Under the pieces are notes generated by a model. The model was not told the origin of the DNA. It did no database searches and was given only the letters and a program-made list of their open reading frames with translations. Both the position numbers and the translations under genes were made by a program. 64,000 bases of DNA from an uncultured virus (IMG/VR IMGVR_UViG_3300017728_001586) (Duplodnaviria > Heunggongvirae > Uroviricota > Caudoviricetes), in the IMG/VR virus record IMGVR_UViG_3300017728_001586; one strand, written 5' to 3'. Shown one piece after another: positions 44,488 to 64,000 of this stretch. The first letter of the stretch is position 1. Each line of letters starts with the position of its first letter.

Positions 44488-45954
44488 TTAGGAATTAACA
44501 GGTGTTCCTGGCCATGTTTGTGACAATGAACCATCCCAACGGATAACAGGTGTTTGACCTTGTCTAGCATATGTACTAGGTGACCTATGTTGATAAGTCG
44601 TTGGTGTCTGACCTTGTCTAGCATATGTAGAAGGACTTCTATGTTGATAAGTCGTTGGTGTTTGACCTTGTCTAGCATATGTAGAAGGACTCTGATGTTG
44701 ATATGTAAGAGGTGTCTGACTATTTGCAGGATTTCTGTAAGTAAACGGACTTCTATGGTCATATGTTAAAGGAGACCTGTGGTCATATGTCAACGGACTT
44801 CTATGGTCATATGTAAATGGAGTCTGATTATTTCTTATAAACGGATTCTGAGCATTTACAGGATTCTGATAGTTCGCTGTTGTTTGTCTGTTTCTAATAT
44901 TAGGTTCTTGTTGAGCTCTAATATTAGGTTCTTGTTGTGACCTTATGTTTGGTTCTTGAGCATTTCTAATAAACGGATTTTGTGCATTAGCAATATACGG
45001 AGATTGTGCATTTCTAATATTAGGTTCTTGCGTTACCGTTTGACCTGAACGAATATTAGGTTCTTGTTTTGCCCTAATATTAGGTTGTTGAGCATTACTA
45101 GGTGATTGAGCATCTCTAATATTAGGTTCTTGTTGATTCTTAATAGTAGGTTGTTGAGCACTCTGCTGTTTGTTTCTAATATTAGGTTCTTGTTGTGACC
45201 TTATGTTTGGTTCTTGTGCTGACTGTTGCGCTGAACGAATATTAGGTTCTTGTTGTGACCTTATGTTTGGTTCTTGTGCATTTGAAGTGGTTTGTGCGTT
45301 TGCAATATAAGGTGTTTGTCTGTTTCTAATATTAGGTTCTTGTGCATTTGCAGTGTTTTGTCTGTTTGCAATATAAGGTGTTTGTGCATTTCTGATATTA
45401 GGTTCTTGAGCTGCACTAGCCCCTTGTGCATTAGCAATGTAAGGAGTCTGAAAGTTTCTGATATTTGGTTCTTGAGCAGACTGTTGAGAATCTCTTATAT
45501 TAGGTTCTTGTTTGTTCTTAATTGTAGGTTGCTGAGCATTACTAGGTGACTGAGCATCTCTAATATTAGGTTCTTGTTGGTTTCTAATATTAGGTTGTTG
45601 TATGCTTCTAATATTGGGTTGCTGATTGTTCCTTATATTAGGTTCTTGATTATTCGCAATGTATGGACTCTGGAAAGTATAAGGTTGTTGACCAGTATAA
45701 GGAGTCTGACCATTCTTAATAGTAGGTTGTTGATTATTTCTAATATTAGGTTGTTGATTATTCGCAATATAAGGACTCTGGAAAGTATAAGGAGTCTGAC
45801 CAGTATAAGGAGTCTGACCAGATGCAATATATGGCGACTGATATGTAAATGGTTGTTGACCAGTATAAGGTTGCTGGCCATTAGCAATAGACGGAGTTTG
45901 CACATTAGAAGTGCTTGGCGATTGAGCGATGCCAATTAGAGGTTGCTGTGGCAT
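44488..45954 (-). CDS. Repeat protein B1 (QEPNIR-rich; mirror partner of 45995..48097)
   Basis: 488 aa of 4/6/8/10-residue Pro-anchored units; GGGAG RBS. Confidence 0.85.
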   Translation of the reverse strand: MPQQPLIGIAQSPSTSNVQTPSIANGQQPYTGQQPFTYQSPYIASGQTPYTGQTPYTFQSPYIANNQQPNIRNNQQPTIKNGQTPYTGQQPYTFQSPYIANNQEPNIRNNQQPNIRSIQQPNIRNQQEPNIRDAQSPSNAQQPTIKNKQEPNIRDSQQSAQEPNIRNFQTPYIANAQGASAAQEPNIRNAQTPYIANRQNTANAQEPNIRNRQTPYIANAQTTSNAQEPNIRSQQEPNIRSAQQSAQEPNIRSQQEPNIRNKQQSAQQPTIKNQQEPNIRDAQSPSNAQQPNIRAKQEPNIRSGQTVTQEPNIRNAQSPYIANAQNPFIRNAQEPNIRSQQEPNIRAQQEPNIRNRQTTANYQNPVNAQNPFIRNNQTPFTYDHRSPLTYDHRSPLTYDHRSPFTYRNPANSQTPLTYQHQSPSTYARQGQTPTTYQHRSPSTYARQGQTPTTYQHRSPSTYARQGQTPVIRWDGSLSQTWPGTPVNS

Positions 45955-45994
45955 TAGATTTTACTCCCTAATCTTAATTTAATTATCATCTTCA

Positions 45995-48097
45995 TTATTT
46001 TTGCCCAATTGGTAGACCTTGGTTGTTAAAGTTATGTGCTAACATTCCATTAACAAAGAAGTTCGAGTTATCTTCAATATCAGTTAAGTTATAAACTTCC
46101 ATTTCTGAATGTTCTTCTACTGATACTATCTCTAGTCCCATTTCATCTTGTCTATCAAACATTATTCCATCTAACATACTGAATACACTATCTCCAACTG
46201 TAAGTTCATGTGTTTCTATATCTTCCATCCAACTATGTTCTTTGACTGATTTCTCAACATCAAATGCACCCCATTCGCCATTTGGTAGCATCAATGGGTG
46301 AGTATCAGTCATCTGTAGAATTCTACCATCTGAGAATGTTATATCCCATATAGAACTGATTGGTTGAGGATTAATTTGTTGTATTCTCTTAGGTTCAAGT
46401 AATTTAGTACTTTCGTTCCAAGACATGACCCATTGACCAATAACACATGACTCGATAGGTGCATGTGAACCATCGCCTAACCATATCATTGAACCTGGAG
46501 CGAAGCAACCTCCGCCTCCTCCTCCACCACCAAAGGTAAACGGATTTCTGTATCCATAAGATGCAGGAGACTGATTGTTTGCAATCGAAGGCGTTCTATG
46601 TTGATAAGTGAAAGGATTTCTTCCACTAAATGGGTTTCTAGCAGAGTTTGGTTGTCTTGCCTGATAAGTGAACGGTTGTCTTGCACTAAATGGTTGTCTA
46701 GCACTATTCGGTTGTCTTGCCTGATATGTACTAGGTGACCTGTGATTATATGAACTAGGCGACCTATGGTCGTATGTAAATGGTTGTCTTGCACTAAATG
46801 GGTTTCTAGCAGCGTTAGGTTGTCTTGCCTGATATGTACTAGGTGACCTATGTTGATATGTACTAGGCGACCTATGGTCATATGTATATGGTGACCTGTG
46901 ATTATATGTAGTAGGTGACCTATGGTTGTAAGTAAACGGATTACGATATGTAAACGGTGACCTATGGTCATATGTAAATGGCGACCTATGTTGATAAGTA
47001 AACGGACTTCTATAAGGTGACCTATGGTCATATGTACCAGGTTGTCTATTGTTGTAAGTACTAGGATTCTGGTAAATACTTGGCGACTGATGCTGATAAC
47101 TACTAGGTTGTCTGTTCTGATAGGTACTCGGATTCTGGTAAATACTTGGCGACTGATGCTGATAAGTACTAGGTTGTCTGTTCTGATAGGTACTTGGATT
47201 CTGATAGATACTCGGTGACTGATGTTGATAAGTCAACGGACTTCTATGCTGATAAGTGAACGGACTTCTATAAGGCGACCTATGGTCATATGTCAACGGA
47301 CTTCTATGGTCATATGTAAACGGACTTCTATAAGGTGACCTATGGTCATATGTTAAAGGAGACCTGTGATTATAAGTAAACGGATTACGATATGTAAACG
47401 GTGACCTATGGTCATATGTAAATGGTGACCTATGTTGATAGATGAACGGACTTCTATAAGGCGACCTATGGTCATATGTATTAGGTTGTCTATTACTATA
47501 TGTAGAAGGTGACCTATGGTCATATGTAAATGGTGACCTATGTTGATATGTCAACGGACTTCTATGTTGATATGTCAACGGACTTCTATGATTATATGTA
47601 GAAGGATCCTGATATGTTCTAGGGTCTCTATATGTAGAAGGCGACCTATGTTGATATGTGCCAGGTTGTCTAGCATTTCTAATATTAGGTTCTTGTTGTG
47701 ACCTAATATTTGGTTCTTGTTGATTTCTAATATTAGGTTCTTGTGCATTTACTGGATTTTGATAAATCGCAGGTTGTCTTCTATCTCTAATATTAGGTTC
47801 TTGTGCATTAGCAATATAAGGATAAGGATTCTGTTTGTTTCTTATATTAGGTTCTTGTGCATTAGCAATATAAGGATAAGGATTCTGTCTGTTTCTTATA
47901 TTGGGTTCTTGTGCGTTTGCGATATAAGGATAAGGTTGTTGAACACTCTGTTGTCCAGAAGCATTATTCCAACCGGTAGGCGTCTTTACATAAATCTGGT
48001 CTGCAGCTTTCCATGTGCCTGAGTCTGTTTTTACCCATGCACCTCGGGTTGCATTCCAACCGGTTGGTGTTTTTACCTTTTGTGAGCCTGTCGCCAT
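45995..48097 (-). CDS. Repeat protein A1 (YxHRSP-rich) with C-terminal Gly8-Hint domain
   Basis: N-terminal VK-x-x-x-G-W hairpin motifs, long Tyr/His/Arg/Ser/Pro repeat, then CFAPG...TDTHP...NFFVNGMLAHN. Confidence 0.88.
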   Translation of the reverse strand: MATGSQKVKTPTGWNATRGAWVKTDSGTWKAADQIYVKTPTGWNNASGQQSVQQPYPYIANAQEPNIRNRQNPYPYIANAQEPNIRNKQNPYPYIANAQEPNIRDRRQPAIYQNPVNAQEPNIRNQQEPNIRSQQEPNIRNARQPGTYQHRSPSTYRDPRTYQDPSTYNHRSPLTYQHRSPLTYQHRSPFTYDHRSPSTYSNRQPNTYDHRSPYRSPFIYQHRSPFTYDHRSPFTYRNPFTYNHRSPLTYDHRSPYRSPFTYDHRSPLTYDHRSPYRSPFTYQHRSPLTYQHQSPSIYQNPSTYQNRQPSTYQHQSPSIYQNPSTYQNRQPSSYQHQSPSIYQNPSTYNNRQPGTYDHRSPYRSPFTYQHRSPFTYDHRSPFTYRNPFTYNHRSPTTYNHRSPYTYDHRSPSTYQHRSPSTYQARQPNAARNPFSARQPFTYDHRSPSSYNHRSPSTYQARQPNSARQPFSARQPFTYQARQPNSARNPFSGRNPFTYQHRTPSIANNQSPASYGYRNPFTFGGGGGGGGCFAPGSMIWLGDGSHAPIESCVIGQWVMSWNESTKLLEPKRIQQINPQPISSIWDITFSDGRILQMTDTHPLMLPNGEWGAFDVEKSVKEHSWMEDIETHELTVGDSVFSMLDGIMFDRQDEMGLEIVSVEEHSEMEVYNLTDIEDNSNFFVNGMLAHNFNNQGLPIGQK
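46031..46507 (-). other. Hint (intein-like) autoprocessing domain, 159 aa
   Basis: Cys1 (CF), block B TxxH, terminal His-Asn followed by Phe; no endonuclease insert. Confidence 0.85.
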
Positions 48098-54927: not shown

Positions 54928-55069
54928 TTTTATTTTCCTATAAAAATTAAATTAATTGTTGTGACTCAGCACTCCTGAGTCGTGAATACATAATATAAAA
55001 CTGTCCTCTCACAATGAGGGTCGTTGTCTCACTGGTCGACAACCTTGATTTGTACTATTATTTAGTGTT

Positions 55070-55312
55070 TTAGAATGTTCCGCCGTCTATCGTAGTGGTG
55101 GTTGTCCACTTATCAGTTGACTGGTCATATGAGAGAAGACCATCATCTGTTTCAGATGCGTTTACATCTGCAAGTTCATTGATAGATTTAGCAGATAAGT
55201 CTGTTGCACCGCCTGGGTTACCAACAGTCACTTGTTTTGCTCTTAGATTTGTTGTGTTAGATAATACGCCACCTATGGTAGCGACTCTTGATACTACGCC
55301 TTTTATTGCCAT
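55070..55312 (-). CDS. Small virion protein
   Basis: ELADVN..DGLLSYD..KW module; ends DGGTF. Confidence 0.7.
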   Translation of the reverse strand: MAIKGVVSRVATIGGVLSNTTNLRAKQVTVGNPGGATDLSAKSINELADVNASETDDGLLSYDQSTDKWTTTTTIDGGTF

Positions 55313-55644
55313 TATCTGGTTACTCCTGGTGTGACTATTGCTTGACCTTCTACAACTCTTGTTGTTATACCACCAGCACTTGTTATGTTCATATCATACA
55401 CATATCTTCCAGGTTCTAATGCTGATGTTTGAGTATCAGTCAAAGATAATGTCACTTTACCGGTAACATTCTCATTACTGGTAGTGAATGTGGCAGATAT
55501 GGTTGAAGAACCATAGGTCTTTCTTATTTGTCCTGCTGATGTATAACCAGAGAGATTTAAAACCTGTCCTGTTGAATCGGAAACATCTACAGCAACTTGA
55601 AAGTCTGTTCCCTGGTCGATAAATAAATTTGCGATTATAGCCAT
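55312..55644 (-). CDS. Ig/BppU-like virion adaptor protein
   Basis: ANLFIDQGTDF, GRYVYD, RVVEG..VTPGVT. Confidence 0.65.
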   Translation of the reverse strand: MAIIANLFIDQGTDFQVAVDVSDSTGQVLNLSGYTSAGQIRKTYGSSTISATFTTSNENVTGKVTLSLTDTQTSALEPGRYVYDMNITSAGGITTRVVEGQAIVTPGVTR

Positions 55645-55661
55645 ATTACTATTTAGTCATC

Positions 55662-56756
55662 CTATTCGTCAAACGGCAAAGCAGGTACCTGATGAATTTT
55701 CTCAACTGTTGAACTATCTTTCTTAACAAAGACTTTAGTTGAAGCTTTTACAACACCATCACTATCTTTTATAAAGACTCCTTTCACTTTTGCAACTGGC
55801 GTTATTGGTCGATTAGAGTTCTCTGTTGCTTGAAATATAAACGGAGACCTGAATCCATATGGTTGTTGTCTGTTTTGTTGAAAACTATAAGACGCCTGAC
55901 CTTGTGCAATATATGGTTGTCGACCAATAGTAGGATTTCTGTAAATAGAAGGACTTCTATATGAGAAAGGATATGTAAATGGTTGCCTTCTAATAACAGG
56001 GTCTTGTCTATTGTGAGTATTAAGATATTGTGCGTTATGTGCTGAAGGTGTTCTCTTATTTCTAATATTAGGTTCTTGTTGACTTCTAATATTAGGTTGT
56101 TGTTTATTTTTAAGCGCTTGTCTAATAGAAGGTGTTTGTGCGCTTCTAATATTAGGTTCTTGTTGACTCGCTGGTGTTCTTGTTATAGAAGGAGTTTGTT
56201 TACTCGCTTGATAAGCAGACTGTTTGTTTCTTATAACAGATTCCTGTTTATTTTTAATAGTAGGTTGTTGTTGATTTCTAATAAAAGGATTCTGCGTATT
56301 CGCTTGTGCATCTGCGGTGTAAGGACTTTGAGCGCTTCTAATATTAGGTTCTTGAGCAGTCTGTTGGGCGCTTCTTATACTAGGCGCCTGTTTGTCTCTA
56401 ATAACAGGTTCTTGTGCGTTTGCAGTATACGGAGTTTGATGAGCTCTTTCAAACGGATTTTGTCTGTTTCTAATATTAGGTTCTTGTTGATTTCTAATAT
56501 TAGGTTGTTGATTACTTTCCTGCTGATTTCTTTCAAACGGATGTTGTTTGTTTCTAATATTAGGTTGTTGATTACTTTCCTGCTGATTTCTTTCAAACGG
56601 ATGTTGTTTGTTTCTAATAACAGGTTGCTGTGCCTGATGCTGTCGATTTCTTTCAAACGGATGTTGTTTGTTTCTAATAACAGGTTGTTGCGCTGGTTGT
56701 TGCACCTGTGTAGCAATAGGATGTTGGTATATGGATGGTTGTTGTCCTACTGGCAT
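55662..56756 (-). CDS. Repeat protein B2 (QxPxIR-rich; mirror partner of 56763..58364)
   Basis: 364 aa; QQPVIRNKQHPFERN units; C-terminal VKGVFIK..KVFVK motif. Confidence 0.85.
   Translation of the reverse strand: MPVGQQPSIYQHPIATQVQQPAQQPVIRNKQHPFERNRQHQAQQPVIRNKQHPFERNQQESNQQPNIRNKQHPFERNQQESNQQPNIRNQQEPNIRNRQNPFERAHQTPYTANAQEPVIRDKQAPSIRSAQQTAQEPNIRSAQSPYTADAQANTQNPFIRNQQQPTIKNKQESVIRNKQSAYQASKQTPSITRTPASQQEPNIRSAQTPSIRQALKNKQQPNIRSQQEPNIRNKRTPSAHNAQYLNTHNRQDPVIRRQPFTYPFSYRSPSIYRNPTIGRQPYIAQGQASYSFQQNRQQPYGFRSPFIFQATENSNRPITPVAKVKGVFIKDSDGVVKASTKVFVKKDSSTVEKIHQVPALPFDE
56490..56690. repeat. 60-bp tandem repeat x3 (coding)
   Basis: Consecutive 60-nt lines nearly identical; boundaries approximate. 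Confidence 0.85.
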
Positions 56757-56762
56757 ATCACA

Positions 56763-58364
56763 TTACTCCTGGTTATTATCATCGTTTTCATCGTCTTCTG
56801 GTTCTTCGTTTTCGTAATACAGAGTCACTTTTAGCGATATTGTATGAGTTCCCATATTAGCATCTGGACTTGTAAATGTAAATGTATTAGTTGTCTCGTA
56901 CTCCTTAACATCTCCACCGCTAGCATTATCACATTTCCACTTGGTAAAAGTACCATTAGTTGTACCAAAACTCCAAGAAGTGCTAGTTATTGCAGTGCCT
57001 GTAGAAATGTTTCCGCTCAGAGTACCCTCATTGAAGGTACCATGAGTAGAGGTACTTCTAGCAACAGAATAATTAGTTCCAGCATCGTCTATTTTGTATA
57101 GAAGAATAGCACTATTTGCATTAATGCTTTGCTGCTGACCATTTTGAGTACCGCCGGTATTTGTTTCTTCCAGATATGCATCAGCATTCTGTCCAGGTGG
57201 TATACCATCAGATGAAGCATAAACATATACATTAACATCATTACTTGATTCAACACAATATAATACAATCCAAGGTTCTAGACCGCTATGGTCCGAAACT
57301 GAAACCTCACAATGAACTTCAGTATATGGAGCAGTCGTAGTACCAATGTTTTGCTGTTGTAATTCACTAAAGATAAACGGTGTTCGTGCATTTCTTGAGT
57401 TTTGTGTATTGACAATTACTGGAGTTGTAAATGGTGACCTATGTTGGTAAATACTCGGCGATTGATGCTGATAAATTGACGGACTTCTAAATGGTGACCT
57501 ATGCTGATAAGTACTTGGCGATTGATGCTGATAAATTGACGGACTTCTAAATGGCGACTGATGCTGATAAGTACTTGGCGATTGATGCTGATAAATTGAC
57601 GGACTTCTAAATGGCGACTGATGCTGATAAATCAACGGACTTCTATGGTCATAAGTGTCTGGACTTCTATGTTGATAGATACTAGGTTCTCTATTATCGT
57701 ATGTAGAAGGTGACCTATGGTCATAGGTAAATGGTGACCTATGTTGATAAGTAAACGGACTTCTATAAGGCGACCTATGGTCATATATTAAAGGTTCTCT
57801 ATTTTGATATGTAGAAGGTGTTCGAGAAGGACTTTGGTGGTTATATGTTGAAGGACTTCTGTGGTCATATGTAAAAGGACTTCTATGTTCATATGTTAAA
57901 GGTTGTCTATTTGTATAGATGCTAGGCGTTCTAGTCTGAGTCGGTGTACGATATATCAAAGGACTTCTATGTTGATATGTAGAAGGTTCTCTATGTTGAT
58001 AATTTAACTGATAAGTAAACGGTGACCTATGTTGATATGTCAACGGACTTCCATGTTGATATGTAGAAGGTGTTTGAATATTGTATATTGAAGGCGCCCT
58101 ACTTGTGTATATAGCAGGCGACCTGTGATTATAGGTTTTTTGTGCGACACCTTGAGCAATTATTGGATTTTGTGCATTACTAGGCGTCTGAACATTTGTA
58201 GGTGTTCTACTTTGATATGTAAATGGTTGTGTTCCTTGAGTAGTAACCTGATAAATTCTTTGTGCGATATTCGGTTGTTGACCGGCTGCAGGTACTCTGG
58301 CTAAAAAGGGTTGCTGAAAAGTTCCACCATTCTTATCATGTTTTATAAAAATATCGTCTGACAT
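56763..58364 (-). CDS. Repeat protein A2 (YxHRSP-rich) with globular C-terminal domain
   Basis: 533 aa; about 300 aa of repeat followed by about 190 aa non-repetitive domain. Confidence 0.85.
   Translation of the reverse strand: MSDDIFIKHDKNGGTFQQPFLARVPAAGQQPNIAQRIYQVTTQGTQPFTYQSRTPTNVQTPSNAQNPIIAQGVAQKTYNHRSPAIYTSRAPSIYNIQTPSTYQHGSPLTYQHRSPFTYQLNYQHREPSTYQHRSPLIYRTPTQTRTPSIYTNRQPLTYEHRSPFTYDHRSPSTYNHQSPSRTPSTYQNREPLIYDHRSPYRSPFTYQHRSPFTYDHRSPSTYDNREPSIYQHRSPDTYDHRSPLIYQHQSPFRSPSIYQHQSPSTYQHQSPFRSPSIYQHQSPSTYQHRSPFRSPSIYQHQSPSIYQHRSPFTTPVIVNTQNSRNARTPFIFSELQQQNIGTTTAPYTEVHCEVSVSDHSGLEPWIVLYCVESSNDVNVYVYASSDGIPPGQNADAYLEETNTGGTQNGQQQSINANSAILLYKIDDAGTNYSVARSTSTHGTFNEGTLSGNISTGTAITSTSWSFGTTNGTFTKWKCDNASGGDVKEYETTNTFTFTSPDANMGTHTISLKVTLYYENEEPEDDENDDNNQE
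57440..57630. repeat. 60-bp tandem repeat x3 (coding)
   Basis: ggacttctaaatgg..gatgctgataa lines repeat with 60-nt period; boundaries approximate. Confidence 0.85.
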
Positions 58365-58374
58365 ATTTTGTTCA

Positions 58375-60807
58375 CTATATTAAAAAGAAAAGATGACCTA
58401 TCTCTTTTCCACTACCACTAGGAAGACCACTAGATAAATCTGAGTCTGTTATCACACTATAATCTAACTCTATGTCGTTACCATCTAGAGTGATACCATT
58501 ACTCACTGAAGCTTCTAATGTTATCTCACCATCTGTAGTTGTATTAGTACCACCGTCTGGATTATCATTGTAGGTGAGTTTTATACCTTTATTTAGTTCA
58601 ACATTTGCAGTACCATTTTGAGCTATTGTTCCATCACCACTTGCATCGAACTTAAATTGTTTAGCGACTCTGTTGTCTGTAAAGAACACAGCAGAAGCGT
58701 CTTCAGTTAAATTACTAGTACTACCAGCTTGGTCACCAGGGTTCCAAGCAGAACCACTCCATATTAGTATTTGACCAGTACTTGCACCACTATTGACATT
58801 TGCTAAATCTTCTAAGTCGATTGATGGTAAGTCTGATAGAGTTAAAGCAGTAAGAGTAGTTGCAATAGATACATTACCCTTTGCAGTCTGAGTCTGGGTA
58901 CCAGTGACTGCACCTGTTAATGTGAAAGTTGAATTTGCAATTGTTAAATCTATTGTACCATCAGCGTCATCGTCATTGTAAGTTGCTGTAAGACCTGTAT
59001 GTGTACCATTGGTTGCAATCTGAGCACCAGTAATGTCTTGTACTTTCTCGGTGAGTGTGACATTTGACCATGAAGAACCAGTTTGAACTAAAATTTGGTC
59101 ATTAGTATTGTTTGCATCTGAAACATCGTATAAGTCATTTAGAGCAAGTTCGGTAGAAGTAATATCTCCTTTAGTCAAAGCTCTAAGAGTAGTTGCAATT
59201 GTCAAATTACCTTTTGCAGTCTGAGTAGCAGTACCTGTGACTCCACCTGTTAATGTGAAAGTTGAATTGTCTACTACTAGATTTGTTTTGCCTGTATCAT
59301 CGTTGTATGTGACTGATAGACCTGTTTCAGTATTACCAGCGAACATTGCACCAGCGATATCTTCAACTCTTTCTCGCATGGGTGTGTTTTCCCATTGGTC
59401 TGTGGTATCATTATACAGTAAAACATGGTCTTCTGCAAGCGCAATAGGATGGTCTACATTTGCAAGATAATCTATATTCTTTAATGCGATTCTAGCGTCT
59501 GCTCTTGCATCTGTATAATATAGATTAGAATTATGTTCTGTTAAGTTTTGTGTTGTGTGGTTTGCAATACTTGAAACTGTACCAGTCAAAGAACCTGCGT
59601 TTGCATTACTGTCGTGGTCAGATGTTGTATCTAGTATTGTGTGAGTACCAGCAAAGTTTTTAATGTTATTAACTACAGAACTACCTGATTTGAATACTGA
59701 GTTAGTATCACCTGTTATATCATCGACACTTGTAATGTCGCCACCAGTGATATTCAATGTACCATCTGTTAGAGTTCCTACTGTTGCAGTTCCTGATACA
59801 TTTGATAAGTTTGAATATACATTTGACCATCTCTTTGATGTTAAACCCAATGAATATGTATTAGTTGTTTCTGGTCTTAGATGAGAGTTTGCATAACCTG
59901 TGAATGTAATTGTATCACTAGCGGCATTACCTAATGTTGTGTTTCCGTCTACTGTAAGGTTTGCATTTAAGGTTGTATTATCAACTACTTGAAGTGTTGA
60001 TTGCATATGCACATCACCATCAATGTCTACAGCATCTAAATGAGATGTACCATTTACATCGATGTCGCCTTCGATATCTAAGAATCCTGAGAATGTTCCG
60101 TTGACTGCGCCTGTTATAGAACCACTGTTGATACTCATTGTAGAATCAGTGATAGTAGGTGCAGTTAGTGTCTTGCCTGTTGTGAGTAAGATATCATCTT
60201 CTGCAAATGTCTTACCTGCAAGTTGTATTGTATATCCAGATTCTAGTAGAGTTGTTGGTGATGAACTATCTCCATTTATAATAACACCGTTTGCATTGGT
60301 GTTATAGATTGTGTTCTCAACTGTTTTCTGGAAGAATGATGCAACTGAGTTTGCAATATTTGTTCCTACAAATGCACCAGTGTATGAGTATACATGAAGT
60401 CTATCGTTAGTAGACATTGCATTTGCTTGACCAGATGCATAAGTACCTGTTAGTGTGATACCCTCATGCGAACCTGTACCAGTAGGATTAGAAATAATGA
60501 AATCTACATCTTCTATCAAATGTCTTTCGTTTTTAAATACTTGAATCTTATCTTTTACAAAAATTAAGTTATTTGCAAACTCATCGTTACCTGTAAATAG
60601 TGTTTGGTTTGTTGATGCAACGAATACGAACTCTTGGAAGAAAAACTGTTTGTCTTCTAAAACATTGACAGCATCAACTAGTGTTCCGTTGTTTCCAGAT
60701 TTTAATCCTTCTCTTAGACCAGAAACTTCACCCACATCATATGCGAGTTCGTTATAGGTAGTTCTAAAGTCTTCAATTGTTGCGAAGTTGTCTACTGTTT
60801 TAGCCAT
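58375..60807 (-). CDS. Modular tail-fibre-like virion protein
   Basis: NLYYTDARAD, VEDIAGAM..NTETG, TFTLTG.VTG x2; C-terminal LPSG..GHLFF. Confidence 0.78.
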   Translation of the reverse strand: MAKTVDNFATIEDFRTTYNELAYDVGEVSGLREGLKSGNNGTLVDAVNVLEDKQFFFQEFVFVASTNQTLFTGNDEFANNLIFVKDKIQVFKNERHLIEDVDFIISNPTGTGSHEGITLTGTYASGQANAMSTNDRLHVYSYTGAFVGTNIANSVASFFQKTVENTIYNTNANGVIINGDSSSPTTLLESGYTIQLAGKTFAEDDILLTTGKTLTAPTITDSTMSINSGSITGAVNGTFSGFLDIEGDIDVNGTSHLDAVDIDGDVHMQSTLQVVDNTTLNANLTVDGNTTLGNAASDTITFTGYANSHLRPETTNTYSLGLTSKRWSNVYSNLSNVSGTATVGTLTDGTLNITGGDITSVDDITGDTNSVFKSGSSVVNNIKNFAGTHTILDTTSDHDSNANAGSLTGTVSSIANHTTQNLTEHNSNLYYTDARADARIALKNIDYLANVDHPIALAEDHVLLYNDTTDQWENTPMRERVEDIAGAMFAGNTETGLSVTYNDDTGKTNLVVDNSTFTLTGGVTGTATQTAKGNLTIATTLRALTKGDITSTELALNDLYDVSDANNTNDQILVQTGSSWSNVTLTEKVQDITGAQIATNGTHTGLTATYNDDDADGTIDLTIANSTFTLTGAVTGTQTQTAKGNVSIATTLTALTLSDLPSIDLEDLANVNSGASTGQILIWSGSAWNPGDQAGSTSNLTEDASAVFFTDNRVAKQFKFDASGDGTIAQNGTANVELNKGIKLTYNDNPDGGTNTTTDGEITLEASVSNGITLDGNDIELDYSVITDSDLSSGLPSGSGKEIGHLFFLI

Positions 60808-61021
60808 GTAATTTCTCTACTATATCTTTTAATAAGTCTTTAATTTCTGTTACCTCTTTCTTAAGAGTATTTATTTCATTCTTTTGAGTTTTTAAAAACT
60901 CTCTTCTTCTCATTGTCAACCTATACTGTTCTTCGTTAGTATTGATAATGGCATGAGAGGATTCATCCCTAATTAGGTCTGAAAATCCTTCCACTTTATG
61001 TACTATCTTACGCAAGAGCAA
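60800..61021 (-). CDS. Conserved small coiled-coil protein (start uncertain)
   Basis: KVEG..DL.RD..S.AIIN motif and C-terminal heptads. Confidence 0.6.
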   Translation of the reverse strand: MLLRKIVHKVEGFSDLIRDESSHAIINTNEEQYRLTMRRREFLKTQKNEINTLKKEVTEIKDLLKDIVEKLHG

Positions 61022-64000
61022 TACACCTCAATGCAGTCACTAGTGGTACAATCGAAGTATTACTTGATTGACCAACTATCTTAACTACAAAACCTGTGAA
61101 CTCTGGTAAACCTTCAGCAGTATATTCATACTCTTTAAAGTTTCTTGCATCTTTTTCGGTCACCACATCTGGTTCTCCATCTCCATTGAAGTATTCGAAC
61201 CCTAAGTCATCGATAGGTGTTGTCTCGTCATTCTTTAATATCTTAAACATGAATTTTAAATCAGATTCAGGTGGTCTATAGTTATCTGCAATAACTTTCA
61301 ATGTAGTTGCAGGATTCTTAAGATTCACTTTTCTAGTGATATAGACCATGGCGTTATTATCGCCATCTGGATCAGTTGAAGGCACATGAATCATAGAACC
61401 AGTTGAACCACCAGGTAGGTCATTAGCAGAATCAATATTATTGATTCTATTCATGATACCCAAACAACCAATCGTACCAATATCAATTACTGGAGATAAG
61501 TTCTGGTTAGCACTAGTAAACTGTAATCTACATTCAAATGATTTATTATTTGTGCCACCAGTCTGTTCTTCTGATTCATTAATACTCGATGCGATAATAC
61601 TAGGTCTTTCGAAATAGTTATTGTCATTTAATGTAATGAATTCATTCTTTGAGCGTAATGTAAATGTTGAATCTAAATTATTATCTTCAGGTGAATTAGT
61701 TCCTGTTCTTCTAACACTTGACAATAATGTTGTGTCTTTATATGTTAAAGAAGGTATCATTGTATGCAATACATCATAGTACATGTTAGTAGTTGCATAT
61801 GCTTGGTCACCACCAGCAATAGTTGATTCAACTGCATTGGTATATGATAAGTGATATGATGATAAGTCTGGTGTACATGCAAATGAGTCGATACCATAAT
61901 TATTGATACTACTGAATACTTTATTAATTGAATCTACAGGGAAACCACCCAATGTATCTCCAACACTTGATAATGTTATAGTTGCATTGTTTGAACCATC
62001 ATAGTTATTAATAGTGATAGATTCGTTTGCAGTATAACCTACACCTGGGTCTTTGATTGTCACTGAACTAATTTGATTTCCACTATTAACTGTTATTGTA
62101 TCAATCTTAAGTCCTGTACCAGTACCACTGTAGGTATATCCTGTGGAATCCCAATTGGCGCCACTATTGTTATATGTACCAGCAGTTGGAGTTCCTGTTG
62201 TTGAACCTGCTACAGTTAATACACCATTCTTCTTATCTCCTTCTACGCCATATATAACAACATTCGATTGATTGTCGTACATACCATGTGAGTAAGAGTA
62301 TACTCTAAAGAATGATTGATTAGAAAAAGTTTCTATTGAATTATTCTGCAATTTCTTAGGTGGTAAATGTGCGTTGTTAAACACGATGTTTGCAGCTGTA
62401 GTTGTATTAAACTTAGCGACTCTCATATTAAACTTCAAGTCATCTGTTTGTTCTGCTGTCCATGTAGATGCGTTCTGAGACATGAACAATGAACCAGCGT
62501 ATGGTTGTCCTGATATTGTCTGTCCAGTAATTAAATCTGTTTCGCCCATTCTGGAAATGAAACACTCGTAATCTGTTGAGTTAGTATACACAACAAAACA
62601 ATATTCATGTTTGTCTTCTAGGTATACAGGTGACTCAAATGTAAATGTAGTTGCGGATGAACCATCATCTGAAGTATTGACTTCATCTGGATTCTTTGTC
62701 ACAATTGAGAATGGTATAGTTGTCTGTCCTGGATATCCATTTATCATATTTCTGATTTCTACTGATACAGGTAAACTAGTTGCCTTACTCTTAAAGAATA
62801 CATCTATAGATGTTAGGAACATACCGCCATCAGATTCTACCATGAATGATTCTGCTAATGGGTCTTGCCAACCTCTTGGTTCTACTGGAATATCAAAGTC
62901 AAATATTCTTCTGTCTTCTCTTGGAAGAACCATTAAATCAGCGGGTGGGAACCTTGGAGGTAATGGTACAGGAGGTGGTACAGGAACAGGCACCGGCGGT
63001 GTAGGCACAGGCACAGGTACCGGAACTGGTACAGGGACTGGCACAGGCACAGGCACCGGATTCGGCACTGGCACATATACCGGAGTTGGTGGCATAGGTG
63101 GTGGTGTCGGTGGTATTGGTGGAGGCGGCGCAATAGGTGGTGGTGGGGGTGGTAATGAACCATCTCCTGTCACATTTAATCTTTCACCTCTTCTTGTAAT
63201 TGTTCTTTCGCCTGATAATCTTTCTGTCACCACTCTACCATTTCTAGTAGATACTATTTCTGTTTGTGAACTATTTAAGAGACCTTGTGCTTGATAAATC
63301 TCTGCACCCATTGAATCTGGATTACTTTGATTCGATGACTGAGATGTTATCTTTAATTCTCTTTGTCCTGTTGGGAATCTTTGGAAGTTGTCATTAGGTA
63401 TTAAGAACTTACATTCTACTTTACCATTACCATTTGTTTTTATTCCAACACCCTTGTTTGTTGTTCCGTCTTGTGAGAAGTCAGCACTACTAGGTGTGAC
63501 ATAACCATCTACTCTGATACCATCAAAGTATACAAAGTGTTTTGTGTTTGGTTTTAAGTTAGTTCCTACTGCGGTTATCTCTCTACTTCTAATGAAAGGT
63601 ATAACACTGACACTAACAACTCTATCGTTTCTTGTTTCTACAAAGTCTTCAACTACTGAAGTATTAACACCTTGTCTTGATTGAATTTCTGGTGTTTCGG
63701 TAATCTCTGTTGTTATGATTGTACCTTGAACCCATTCACCACCTTGAGCAGGGTCACCAGACCAATTGCCAGGAACAGCTGCATCTACTGAAGAACTAAC
63801 TACGGTTGGTTCACCAACCCATGTTGTCTGCCAGTTATTCCATATTGTTCCAAGTGAGTTTTGATTCTCTGCAAGAACAGCGTCAAAGTTTCCTTCTCTG
63901 TTGATTCTAACTTCTGGTAATTGTTCTGTATCATTCCATATATCAGAACCAGGAGTTAATTTGACATTACCTATAAATGCAAATACATGATATGGATTAA
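61008..64000 (-). CDS. Large virion protein (DUF4815/VrlC-like), 5' end outside window
   Basis: Frame continues to window edge (NPYHVFAFIGNVKLTPGSDIWND); DPLAESF, GSLFMSQNASTW..Q..DLKF, RCIALA end. Confidence 0.85.
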   Translation of the reverse strand, partial: NPYHVFAFIGNVKLTPGSDIWNDTEQLPEVRINREGNFDAVLAENQNSLGTIWNNWQTTWVGEPTVVSSSVDAAVPGNWSGDPAQGGEWVQGTIITTEITETPEIQSRQGVNTSVVEDFVETRNDRVVSVSVIPFIRSREITAVGTNLKPNTKHFVYFDGIRVDGYVTPSSADFSQDGTTNKGVGIKTNGNGKVECKFLIPNDNFQRFPTGQRELKITSQSSNQSNPDSMGAEIYQAQGLLNSSQTEIVSTRNGRVVTERLSGERTITRRGERLNVTGDGSLPPPPPPIAPPPPIPPTPPPMPPTPVYVPVPNPVPVPVPVPVPVPVPVPVPTPPVPVPVPPPVPLPPRFPPADLMVLPREDRRIFDFDIPVEPRGWQDPLAESFMVESDGGMFLTSIDVFFKSKATSLPVSVEIRNMINGYPGQTTIPFSIVTKNPDEVNTSDDGSSATTFTFESPVYLEDKHEYCFVVYTNSTDYECFISRMGETDLITGQTISGQPYAGSLFMSQNASTWTAEQTDDLKFNMRVAKFNTTTAANIVFNNAHLPPKKLQNNSIETFSNQSFFRVYSYSHGMYDNQSNVVIYGVEGDKKNGVLTVAGSTTGTPTAGTYNNSGANWDSTGYTYSGTGTGLKIDTITVNSGNQISSVTIKDPGVGYTANESITINNYDGSNNATITLSSVGDTLGGFPVDSINKVFSSINNYGIDSFACTPDLSSYHLSYTNAVESTIAGGDQAYATTNMYYDVLHTMIPSLTYKDTTLLSSVRRTGTNSPEDNNLDSTFTLRSKNEFITLNDNNYFERPSIIASSINESEEQTGGTNNKSFECRLQFTSANQNLSPVIDIGTIGCLGIMNRINNIDSANDLPGGSTGSMIHVPSTDPDGDNNAMVYITRKVNLKNPATTLKVIADNYRPPESDLKFMFKILKNDETTPIDDLGFEYFNGDGEPDVVTEKDARNFKEYEYTAEGLPEFTGFVVKIVGQSSNTSIVPLVTALRCIALA

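Follow-up and report, generated by a model that had tools for sequence, protein, structure and literature searches.

How can two adjacent genes keep their repeat arrays in mirrored order, so that one array read backwards corresponds to the other read forwards, unit for unit and insert for insert? This question is raised by a 64,000-nt stretch of DNA (the window, at its full length) from an uncultured marine T4-like phage, record IMGVR_UViG_3300017728_001586, in which all of the large open reading frames (ORFs) lie on the - strand. Only four ORFs in the whole window bear the repeat units concerned, and they form two pairs. Gene A2 (56763..58364, -; 533 amino acids, aa) encodes, according to the ORF list, an N-terminal strand (MSDDIFIK...), an array of alpha-type repeats, a non-repetitive C-terminal domain and an acidic tail. 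In gene B2 (55662..56756, -; 364 aa), the beta-type repeat array precedes a conserved C-terminal motif (AKVKGVFIKD...). The remaining pair served us as a replicate and as a cross-control. Gene A1 (45995..48097, -; 700 aa) has beta-type units, alpha-type units, a G8-Cys element and a Hint-like C-terminal domain, and gene B1 (44488..45954, -; 488 aa) has beta-type and then alpha-type units. The original prediction held that A2 and B2 are a second mirror pair obeying the same pairing rule as A1 and B1 with a different pattern, and that the order of the units acts as a barcode by which each A finds its own B. The ORF coordinates, the 60-bp repeats and the strings of units from which it started were all reproduced by the ORF list, Tandem Repeats Finder and our own parse.

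Each repeat unit was reduced to an anchor, namely the Y of Y..[RQG].P for alpha units and the P of P.[IET][RKA] for beta units, with positions counted from 0. Results clearly showed that all 22 anchors of B2 sum with an anchor of A2 to 329 (Y position plus P position). This places the two arrays on a single ungapped antiparallel register and upholds the mirror pairing that had been claimed for them. The variant unit types obey the same constant. The N-type units of A2, at Y 221, 185 and 149, oppose PYTA, PYTA and AYQA of B2 at 108, 144 and 180, and the 4-residue and 12-residue inserts of both proteins also fall on register 329. Toward the other end, PNIA (30) of A2 opposes YGFRSP (299) of B2, and YQSRTP (49) of A2 opposes PYIA (280) of B2. 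The register is longer than the original prediction stated and runs without a gap from about residue 31 to 313 of A2 against about 17 to 300 of B2. The A2 segment (57426..58274, -) is made of 8-aa units TYxHRSPx with YxNRxP variants, and contains 4-aa (RSPx) and 12-aa inserts. The B2 segment (55857..56708, -) is made of 8-aa units QxPNIRxx with PY[TQ]A variants, and contains 4-aa (QQTA, QESN...) and 6+6-aa inserts.

The same rule governs pair 1, where 33 of 34 anchors sum to a constant (K) of 517. The ungapped alignment covers ~460 residues in this pair and ~283 in pair 2. The correspondence is symmetric, in that alpha units on A oppose beta units on B and beta units on A oppose alpha units on B at the same constant; for example, the beta units at the N-terminus of A1 oppose the alpha units at the C-terminus of B1 at 517. 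In both pairs, H-type alpha units meet PxI[RK] beta units, N-type alpha units meet PY[IT]A, and inserts of 4, 6 and 12 residues meet inserts. Identical unit correspondences are therefore found in two different patterns, as had been predicted. The mirror is also specific to the cognate partners. On the best antidiagonal, A1/B2 and A2/B1 gave 10 and 12 units, compared with 22 and 33 for the cognates, so the cross-pair combinations failed to match in the manner foreseen, and the best parallel diagonals gave 15-16 units. This anchor test uses no training and is not circular.

The spacing of the units carries information on the structure that the arrays could adopt. Anchors of one type always lie an even number of residues apart in the window (123 of 123 spacings) and almost always over 69 proteins (1321 of 1323), and the step between an alpha-Y and a beta-P is odd 431 times out of 432. 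This two-residue alternation is unbroken across every unit type and insert (4, 6, 8, 10 and 12 residues). An alternation of such strictness indicates an extended beta strand with two faces, rather than a helix or a polyproline helix. All prolines of the arrays are of one parity, Cys, Trp and Met are absent, and Gly makes up about 1% (0.7-2.4% in the four arrays). The excess mutual information between facing positions has its maximum at the odd register offset +3, which brings the proline-bearing positions of both chains opposite each other. The strongest signal is between alpha +6 and beta -3 (0.9 bit; F-A 123, L-Q 72, F-G 38, S-A 32), followed by H-N and S-E; these values are inflated by common ancestry and by the mixing of unit types, and they are informative on the register. 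The variant pair has N-Y in place of H-N and Y-A in place of Y-R. Textbook beta-sheet geometry allows the prolines to be sited at non-hydrogen-bonded positions, and on this basis we infer a two-stranded antiparallel ribbon in which every proline would be non-hydrogen-bonded and directed outward, an arrangement that would block lateral growth of the sheet. Prediction of a complex between A2 146-313 and B2 18-185 from 3-row alignments gave a score of 0.00 in two runs, with a partner predicted local distance difference test (pLDDT) value of <50, and counts neither way.

The mirror is mostly conserved in relatives of these genes. Three scans of viral contigs yielded 35 distinct adjacent repeat-ORF pairs, six of them in the window's own group. 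In the 29 others, a median of 0.85 of the anchors lies on one antidiagonal (13 pairs at 0.9 or above), and the register constants take 21 distinct values, from 219 to 591. When the B proteins were ranked with a facing matrix trained on the window only, the cognate B came top for 26 of the 31 A proteins. The patterns of more remote pairs, among them L008, L012, L030 and L031 (32-52% identity), differ considerably, and in some of these pairs each chain intermingles alpha and beta units; their arrays still align without gaps from end to end. Changes can also be followed at closer range. In the orthologue L028 (86% and 89% identical), homogenisation has left the A triplet as TYDHRSPF/TYDHRSPS/QSPF and the B triplet opposite it as PNIR/PVIR, while in the window and in L027 YQHQSPS|I stands opposite PFER.

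Two further sets of observations concern the lengths and the arrangement of the arrays. The pair-1-like pairs L034 (585/540 aa) and L050 (496/452 aa) are both matched, and the difference between them looks like a matched loss of ~88 aa in both genes. A profile search of 1.84 billion representatives gave 187 matches at E<=1e-3, 100 at 1e-10 and 23 at 1e-30, and these counts are upper bounds because the list holds unrelated low-complexity proteins (P0065, P0150, P0080). Four longer relatives were found in a search for a fused hairpin form. Only one of these, the A2-like P0004, contains a self-complementary stretch: it consists of an alpha array, a 16-residue linker and a beta array, and its residues 142-219 and 236-313 are complementary over 78 aa without a gap. 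P0004 partly fuses the two halves and doubles back on itself. No further fused hairpin was present among 154 stored proteins of at least 250 aa, and the P0004 locus was not found in the viral contigs.

Based on these observations, we propose, with fair but not strong confidence, that the two chains are co-translated and join in register as an antiparallel duplex, which is probably a two-stranded beta-ribbon edged with proline and would serve as a shaft. A2 and B2 would be structural proteins made together from adjacent genes in the tail-fibre cluster of a T4-like phage, with translational coupling supplying the chains 1:1. One continuous antiparallel register would bring some 283 residues of A2 against some 284 of B2. 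Each alpha unit TYxHRSPx would face one beta unit QxPNIRxx, each variant its own type of partner, and each insert an insert of equal length. In the resulting long two-stranded antiparallel beta-ribbon, the prolines would all be found on the outward, non-hydrogen-bonded edge. One face of the ribbon would display the Y-R, H-N, S-E and F/L/S-A/Q/K pairs that co-vary, and the other face x-I, R-P, P-Q and T-N. At 3.3-3.4 Angstrom per residue the shaft would be roughly 95 nm long for pair 2, and several ribbons may bundle. The A2 N-terminus and the B2 C-terminal motif would form the virion-side end, and the swappable A2 C-terminal domain and the B2 N-terminus the distal tip. Since an insertion or deletion in one chain must be matched in the other, each pair would drift to its own pattern, and A1/B1 and A2/B2 would thereby be kept from mixing, as a by-product or possibly by selection. 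Binding of A2 to B2, the ribbon structure, its polarity and its function are all inferred here from sequence. More tentatively still, the arrays could embody a modular protein-protein pairing code, a kind of 'base-pairing' of proteins, in which an antiparallel beta-ribbon duplex is addressed by unit order. Such a code would have at least four unit types (H-type alpha/PxIR, N-type alpha/PYIA, 6-aa/6-aa and 4-aa insert/4-aa insert). A barcode function of the unit order is plausible.

Other explanations of the mirror must be weighed against this duplex. Two regular 8-residue repeats may appear to match through their composition, and antidiagonals shifted by 8 do score well in the regular stretches (14/22). 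However, the irregular inserts and variants fix one register, and when the order of the B spacings was shuffled, the observed count was reached in 0 of 20000 trials (shuffle maxima 19 and 22). With the cross-pair and parallel controls failing and the result replicated in independent patterns, an artefact of this kind is scarcely credible, and the earlier statement that chance is unlikely holds good. The mirror could instead be a relic of an inverted duplication, whether an antisense reading, a diverged palindrome or an RNA hairpin, with proteins that do not pair. A reversed order with mirrored insertions and deletions is what an inversion should leave, and the best complementarity falls on i+j=K+3. 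Nevertheless, the alignment of A with the reverse complement of B peaks at 36.7% in pair 2 and 34.8% in pair 1 (mean over all antidiagonals 25-26%), and 37% is about the best of 24 phases for two AT-rich 24-mers. Facing units share 8.98 complementary bases of 24, barely above the 8.79 +/- 0.11 obtained with partners permuted within unit class. RNA pairing between A and B, including G-U, peaks at 43%, no inverted repeats of >16 nt were found, and the antisense of B reads SNIRLL, which is not an alpha unit. Because complementarity is low and long inverted repeats are absent, the mirror is not maintained by a DNA palindrome, an RNA hairpin or a sense/antisense reading. The facing 60-bp triplications also speak against an inversion. 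The A2 repeat (57421..57630; 3.5 copies with 94% matches by Tandem Repeats Finder) encodes 3 x 20 aa at the distal end of the array, and it is faced by the B2 repeat (56484..56690; 3.5 copies, 90% matches), which encodes 3 x 20 aa at the array start. Their best cyclic identities in the two orientations are 27/60 and 25/60, compared with a shuffle mean of 24.8 and a maximum of 30, which bears out the claim that they are unrelated. Since these triplications are young (90-94% internal identity) and their DNA is unrelated, the two genes expanded separately and came to be matched; the relatives, likewise, have changed length often and stayed matched. Inversion as the explanation of the upkeep of the mirror is thus largely refuted, and we regard this reading as very improbable. 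The weak complementarity peak itself (offset +11 nt, 35-37%) lies on the codon register i+j=K+3, with Arg AGG opposite Pro CCT (55857-58274 and 44488-48097), and the same register is favoured by residue covariation. This coincidence may be due to chance (about 1 in 24) or may be a faint trace of an ancient sense/antisense origin.

Two other readings leave the mirror in the proteins and differ in what it does there. It is conceivable, though unlikely, that A and B are not in direct contact and are both laid in opposite directions along a third component or a larger bundle, which forces the same length pattern on each. In favour of this, phage fibres are as a rule trimeric, B2 is followed by a small conserved gene, and a lone two-stranded ribbon seems too thin. 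On the other hand, the unit types correspond one to one and symmetrically, the facing positions co-vary at one register, and the window, with its four repeat ORFs, holds no third gene with a matching repeat pattern. A quite possible alternative concerns the barcode and not the pairing: the mirror would serve pairing, matched insertions and deletions would be neutral products of compensated drift, and discrimination between pairs would be a by-product or would be achieved through the terminal domains. Patterns vary freely among the relatives (21 constants), there are apparent mismatched intermediates, and the ends of the pairs carry distinct conserved motifs, all of which fit drift. Pairs 1 and 2 nonetheless share their unit types and have no long common register, which is a barcode-like picture and not proof of selection; compensated drift would give the same cross-pair picture as a barcode.

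A number of points weigh against the proposed duplex itself. A lone two-stranded ribbon of ~95 nm would be unusually thin for a phage fibre. In two of the pairs (L059 and L062) the share of anchors on one antidiagonal is below 0.6, and for 5 of the 31 A proteins (L051, L057, L059, L062 and L070) the cognate B was not ranked first. In addition, length mismatches (of 88 and 44 aa) are seen in the pair-1-like L047 (497/540 aa) and L042 (585/496 aa). The mismatched and low-ranking pairs could represent tolerated mismatches or metagenome assembly errors in the repeats, and L047 and L042 may be real intermediates, recombinants or repeat mis-assemblies. With the facing matrix trained on the cognate pairs of the window, the best cross-pair segments measured 89-91 aa and those of the cognates 270 and 460 aa, and the scores of the cognates themselves are circular; the inflation of the mutual information belongs among these points too. 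The A2 C-terminal domain could not be modelled, so the argument for its role as a tip comes from a domain swap and from nothing else. Finally, such proteins were not encountered in any cultured phage, virion proteome or structure in the searches made.

If the proposed duplex is correct, it would represent a new principle of fibre construction, an antiparallel duplex of two gene products in which register and choice of partner are legible from sequence. It would account for phage fibres that lengthen, shorten and diversify through the matched gain and loss of units and still assemble, and for paralogous fibres that do not mix; several orthogonal fibres could then assemble in one cell. For protein design, the arrays would be a natural source of short, orthogonal modules for beta-strand pairing.

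The A/B pairs share features with several known systems. The C-terminal needle of T4 gp5 is a triple-stranded beta-helix with the octapeptide VxGxxxxx, encoded by one gene and assembled as a parallel homotrimer. It is similar to the A/B pairs in being a phage beta structure of 8-residue repeats whose chains are interlocked in register over a long distance; however, the A/B pairs are encoded by two genes, are antiparallel by sequence and have one Pro per unit, and V.G occurs 0 times in the four arrays. The needle domain at the tip of the T4 long tail fibre, gp37, is a parallel homotrimer with HxH motifs that hold iron. The likeness here is a thin, histidine-lined shaft of short repeats from a T4-like tail-fibre gene cluster. 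In contrast to gp37, H.H is found 0 times in the four arrays, there is one His per 8 residues on one type of chain, and the chains are two and complementary. The G..G..G signature of collagen-like fibres is likewise absent from the arrays (0), and their periodicity is 2 and 8, not 3.

Beyond phage fibres, heterodimeric coiled coils (leucine zippers) choose their partners through a heptad code, are alpha-helical and free of proline, and can coexist as orthogonal pairs. Like these, the A/B arrays would pair two chains lengthwise with the choice of partner held in a short repeat code, but no helix could accommodate their 8-residue period, two-residue alternation and proline in each unit, and their register is set by matched insertions and deletions. 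The stalk of streptococcal antigen I/II consists of an Ala-rich helix and a Pro-rich polyproline helix in a single folded-back chain, with 82- and 39-residue repeats. It resembles the A/B pairs in having two types of repeat, one of them proline-rich, antiparallel along a long thin stalk, and differs in that the A/B arrays are on two chains, with 8-residue units and a periodicity that is only even. The window contains two sets of adjacent genes on the same strand in which alpha units stand opposite beta units along a single ungapped antiparallel register, and the cross-pair controls fail. Because the defining sequence features of the known systems are absent and the build is two-gene and antiparallel with matched insertions and deletions, we treat the A/B pairs as a new kind, and the pairing code seems to be undescribed.

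Searches for known relatives agree with this view in the collections covered. No PHROG family was assigned to A1, B1, A2 or B2 (hmmscan, E<=0.001), and no Pfam family to A2 or B2. The score of A2 against Pfam Bflower_3 (PF21786) was 17 bits, below the cut-off of 34 (E 0.0058), and A2 is not a member. With phmmer, A2 and B2 had 0 matches to all PDB chains at E up to 1. Among 50,697 phage records there was no match for 55000-59500 by megablast or for A2 and B2 by tblastn, searches in which the low-complexity filter may hide repeat matches. No such ORF is present in the fibre region of Methylophilales phage Melnitz. A search of the ESM Atlas produced a lead and no more, one unnamed viral cluster at 0.77. 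Among the titles and abstract openings returned by a full-text literature search, there was no paper on such proteins or motifs.

The ends of the arrays provide the polarity that we suggest for the shaft. Residues 314-533 of A2 (56766..57425, -) comprise the non-repetitive C-terminal domain and the acidic tail. In the A2 orthologue (L027:2888-4486 = L006:6001-7602), the array is 90% identical to about residue 330 and is followed by an unrelated C-terminal domain of similar length. Differences between A2 and this orthologue are distributed 22/15/47 over the three codon positions, mostly the third. A swapped C-terminal domain behind a conserved array is typical of receptor-binding tips, and because of the swap in L027 the A2 domain is a candidate distal tip. 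Its relatives among 5.8 billion proteins were limited to its own cluster, and an AF2 model from a 2-row alignment had a mean pLDDT of 36.6 and was unusable. At the opposite end, residues 317-364 of B2 (55665..55808, -) contain the conserved C-terminal motif, the columns of which are invariant in 7 relatives. The register places this motif opposite the A2 N-terminus, and the AKVKGVF... motif of B2 and the MSDDIFIK start of A2 oppose each other in all B2-like pairs. These two elements would mark the proximal, virion-side end.

The C-termini of the A-type proteins show some additional features. In A1 the C-terminus (45995-46510, -) contains the G8-Cys element and then a Hint/intein-like domain in which TDTHP and NGMLAHN motifs are visible. 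Its Pfam scores are below the cut-offs, with 31.3 bits for Intein_splicing (cut-off 35.8, E 2.1e-7) and 21.2 bits for Hint (cut-off 29.7, E 2.4e-4). In the longer A2-type relatives P0002-P0005, an acidic linker and Cys-Cys are accompanied by a C-terminal domain of weak similarity (BLASTP E 8e-4), in which Pfam calls no Hint. A2 terminates exactly at the acidic tail, and an A1-like relative in L079 terminates just past GGGGNFCEP. This suggests that a self-cleaving C-terminal domain may be removed or lost in A-type proteins.

The gene order around A2 and B2 is compact. The stop codon of A2 is 6 nt from the start of B2, and a Shine-Dalgarno-like AGGAG (56766..56770, -) lies within the last A2 codons, 9 nt ahead of the B2 ATG; the two genes are probably translationally coupled. 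Downstream, B2 is adjoined by a 110-aa gene (55312..55644, -) that matches phrog_3304, 'L-shaped tail fiber protein assembly' (E 2.7e-24), and phrog_1084 (E 1.5e-26). This gene is kept beside B2-like genes in L006 and L020, and it may encode a fibre assembly or accessory protein, possibly for the A2/B2 fibre. The genes flanking A2/B2 match tail-fibre PHROGs.

At least 14 metagenome runs of seawater or marine origin, drawn from 14 studies with dates of 2014-2025, contained DNA near-identical to 55300-58400 (at least 0.94 of sampled words), and the phage lineage is therefore widespread in seawater. Contigs from RNA libraries cover both genes in 4 runs from 3 studies, and one contig of 768 nt spans the A2/B2 junction; such libraries may contain DNA, and these contigs cannot prove transcription. 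A VrlC-like neighbour (61008-63998, -) has 37% identity to its counterpart in Melnitz and ~34-37% to those of Pelagibacter phage Mosig and cyanomyophages, which, judged by this gene, would be the nearest cultured relatives. The VrlC-like structural protein is otherwise ordinary and has, in the middle of its sequence, a long proline-rich stretch (PPPPPPIAPPPPIPPTPPPMPP..., then PVPVPV repeats).

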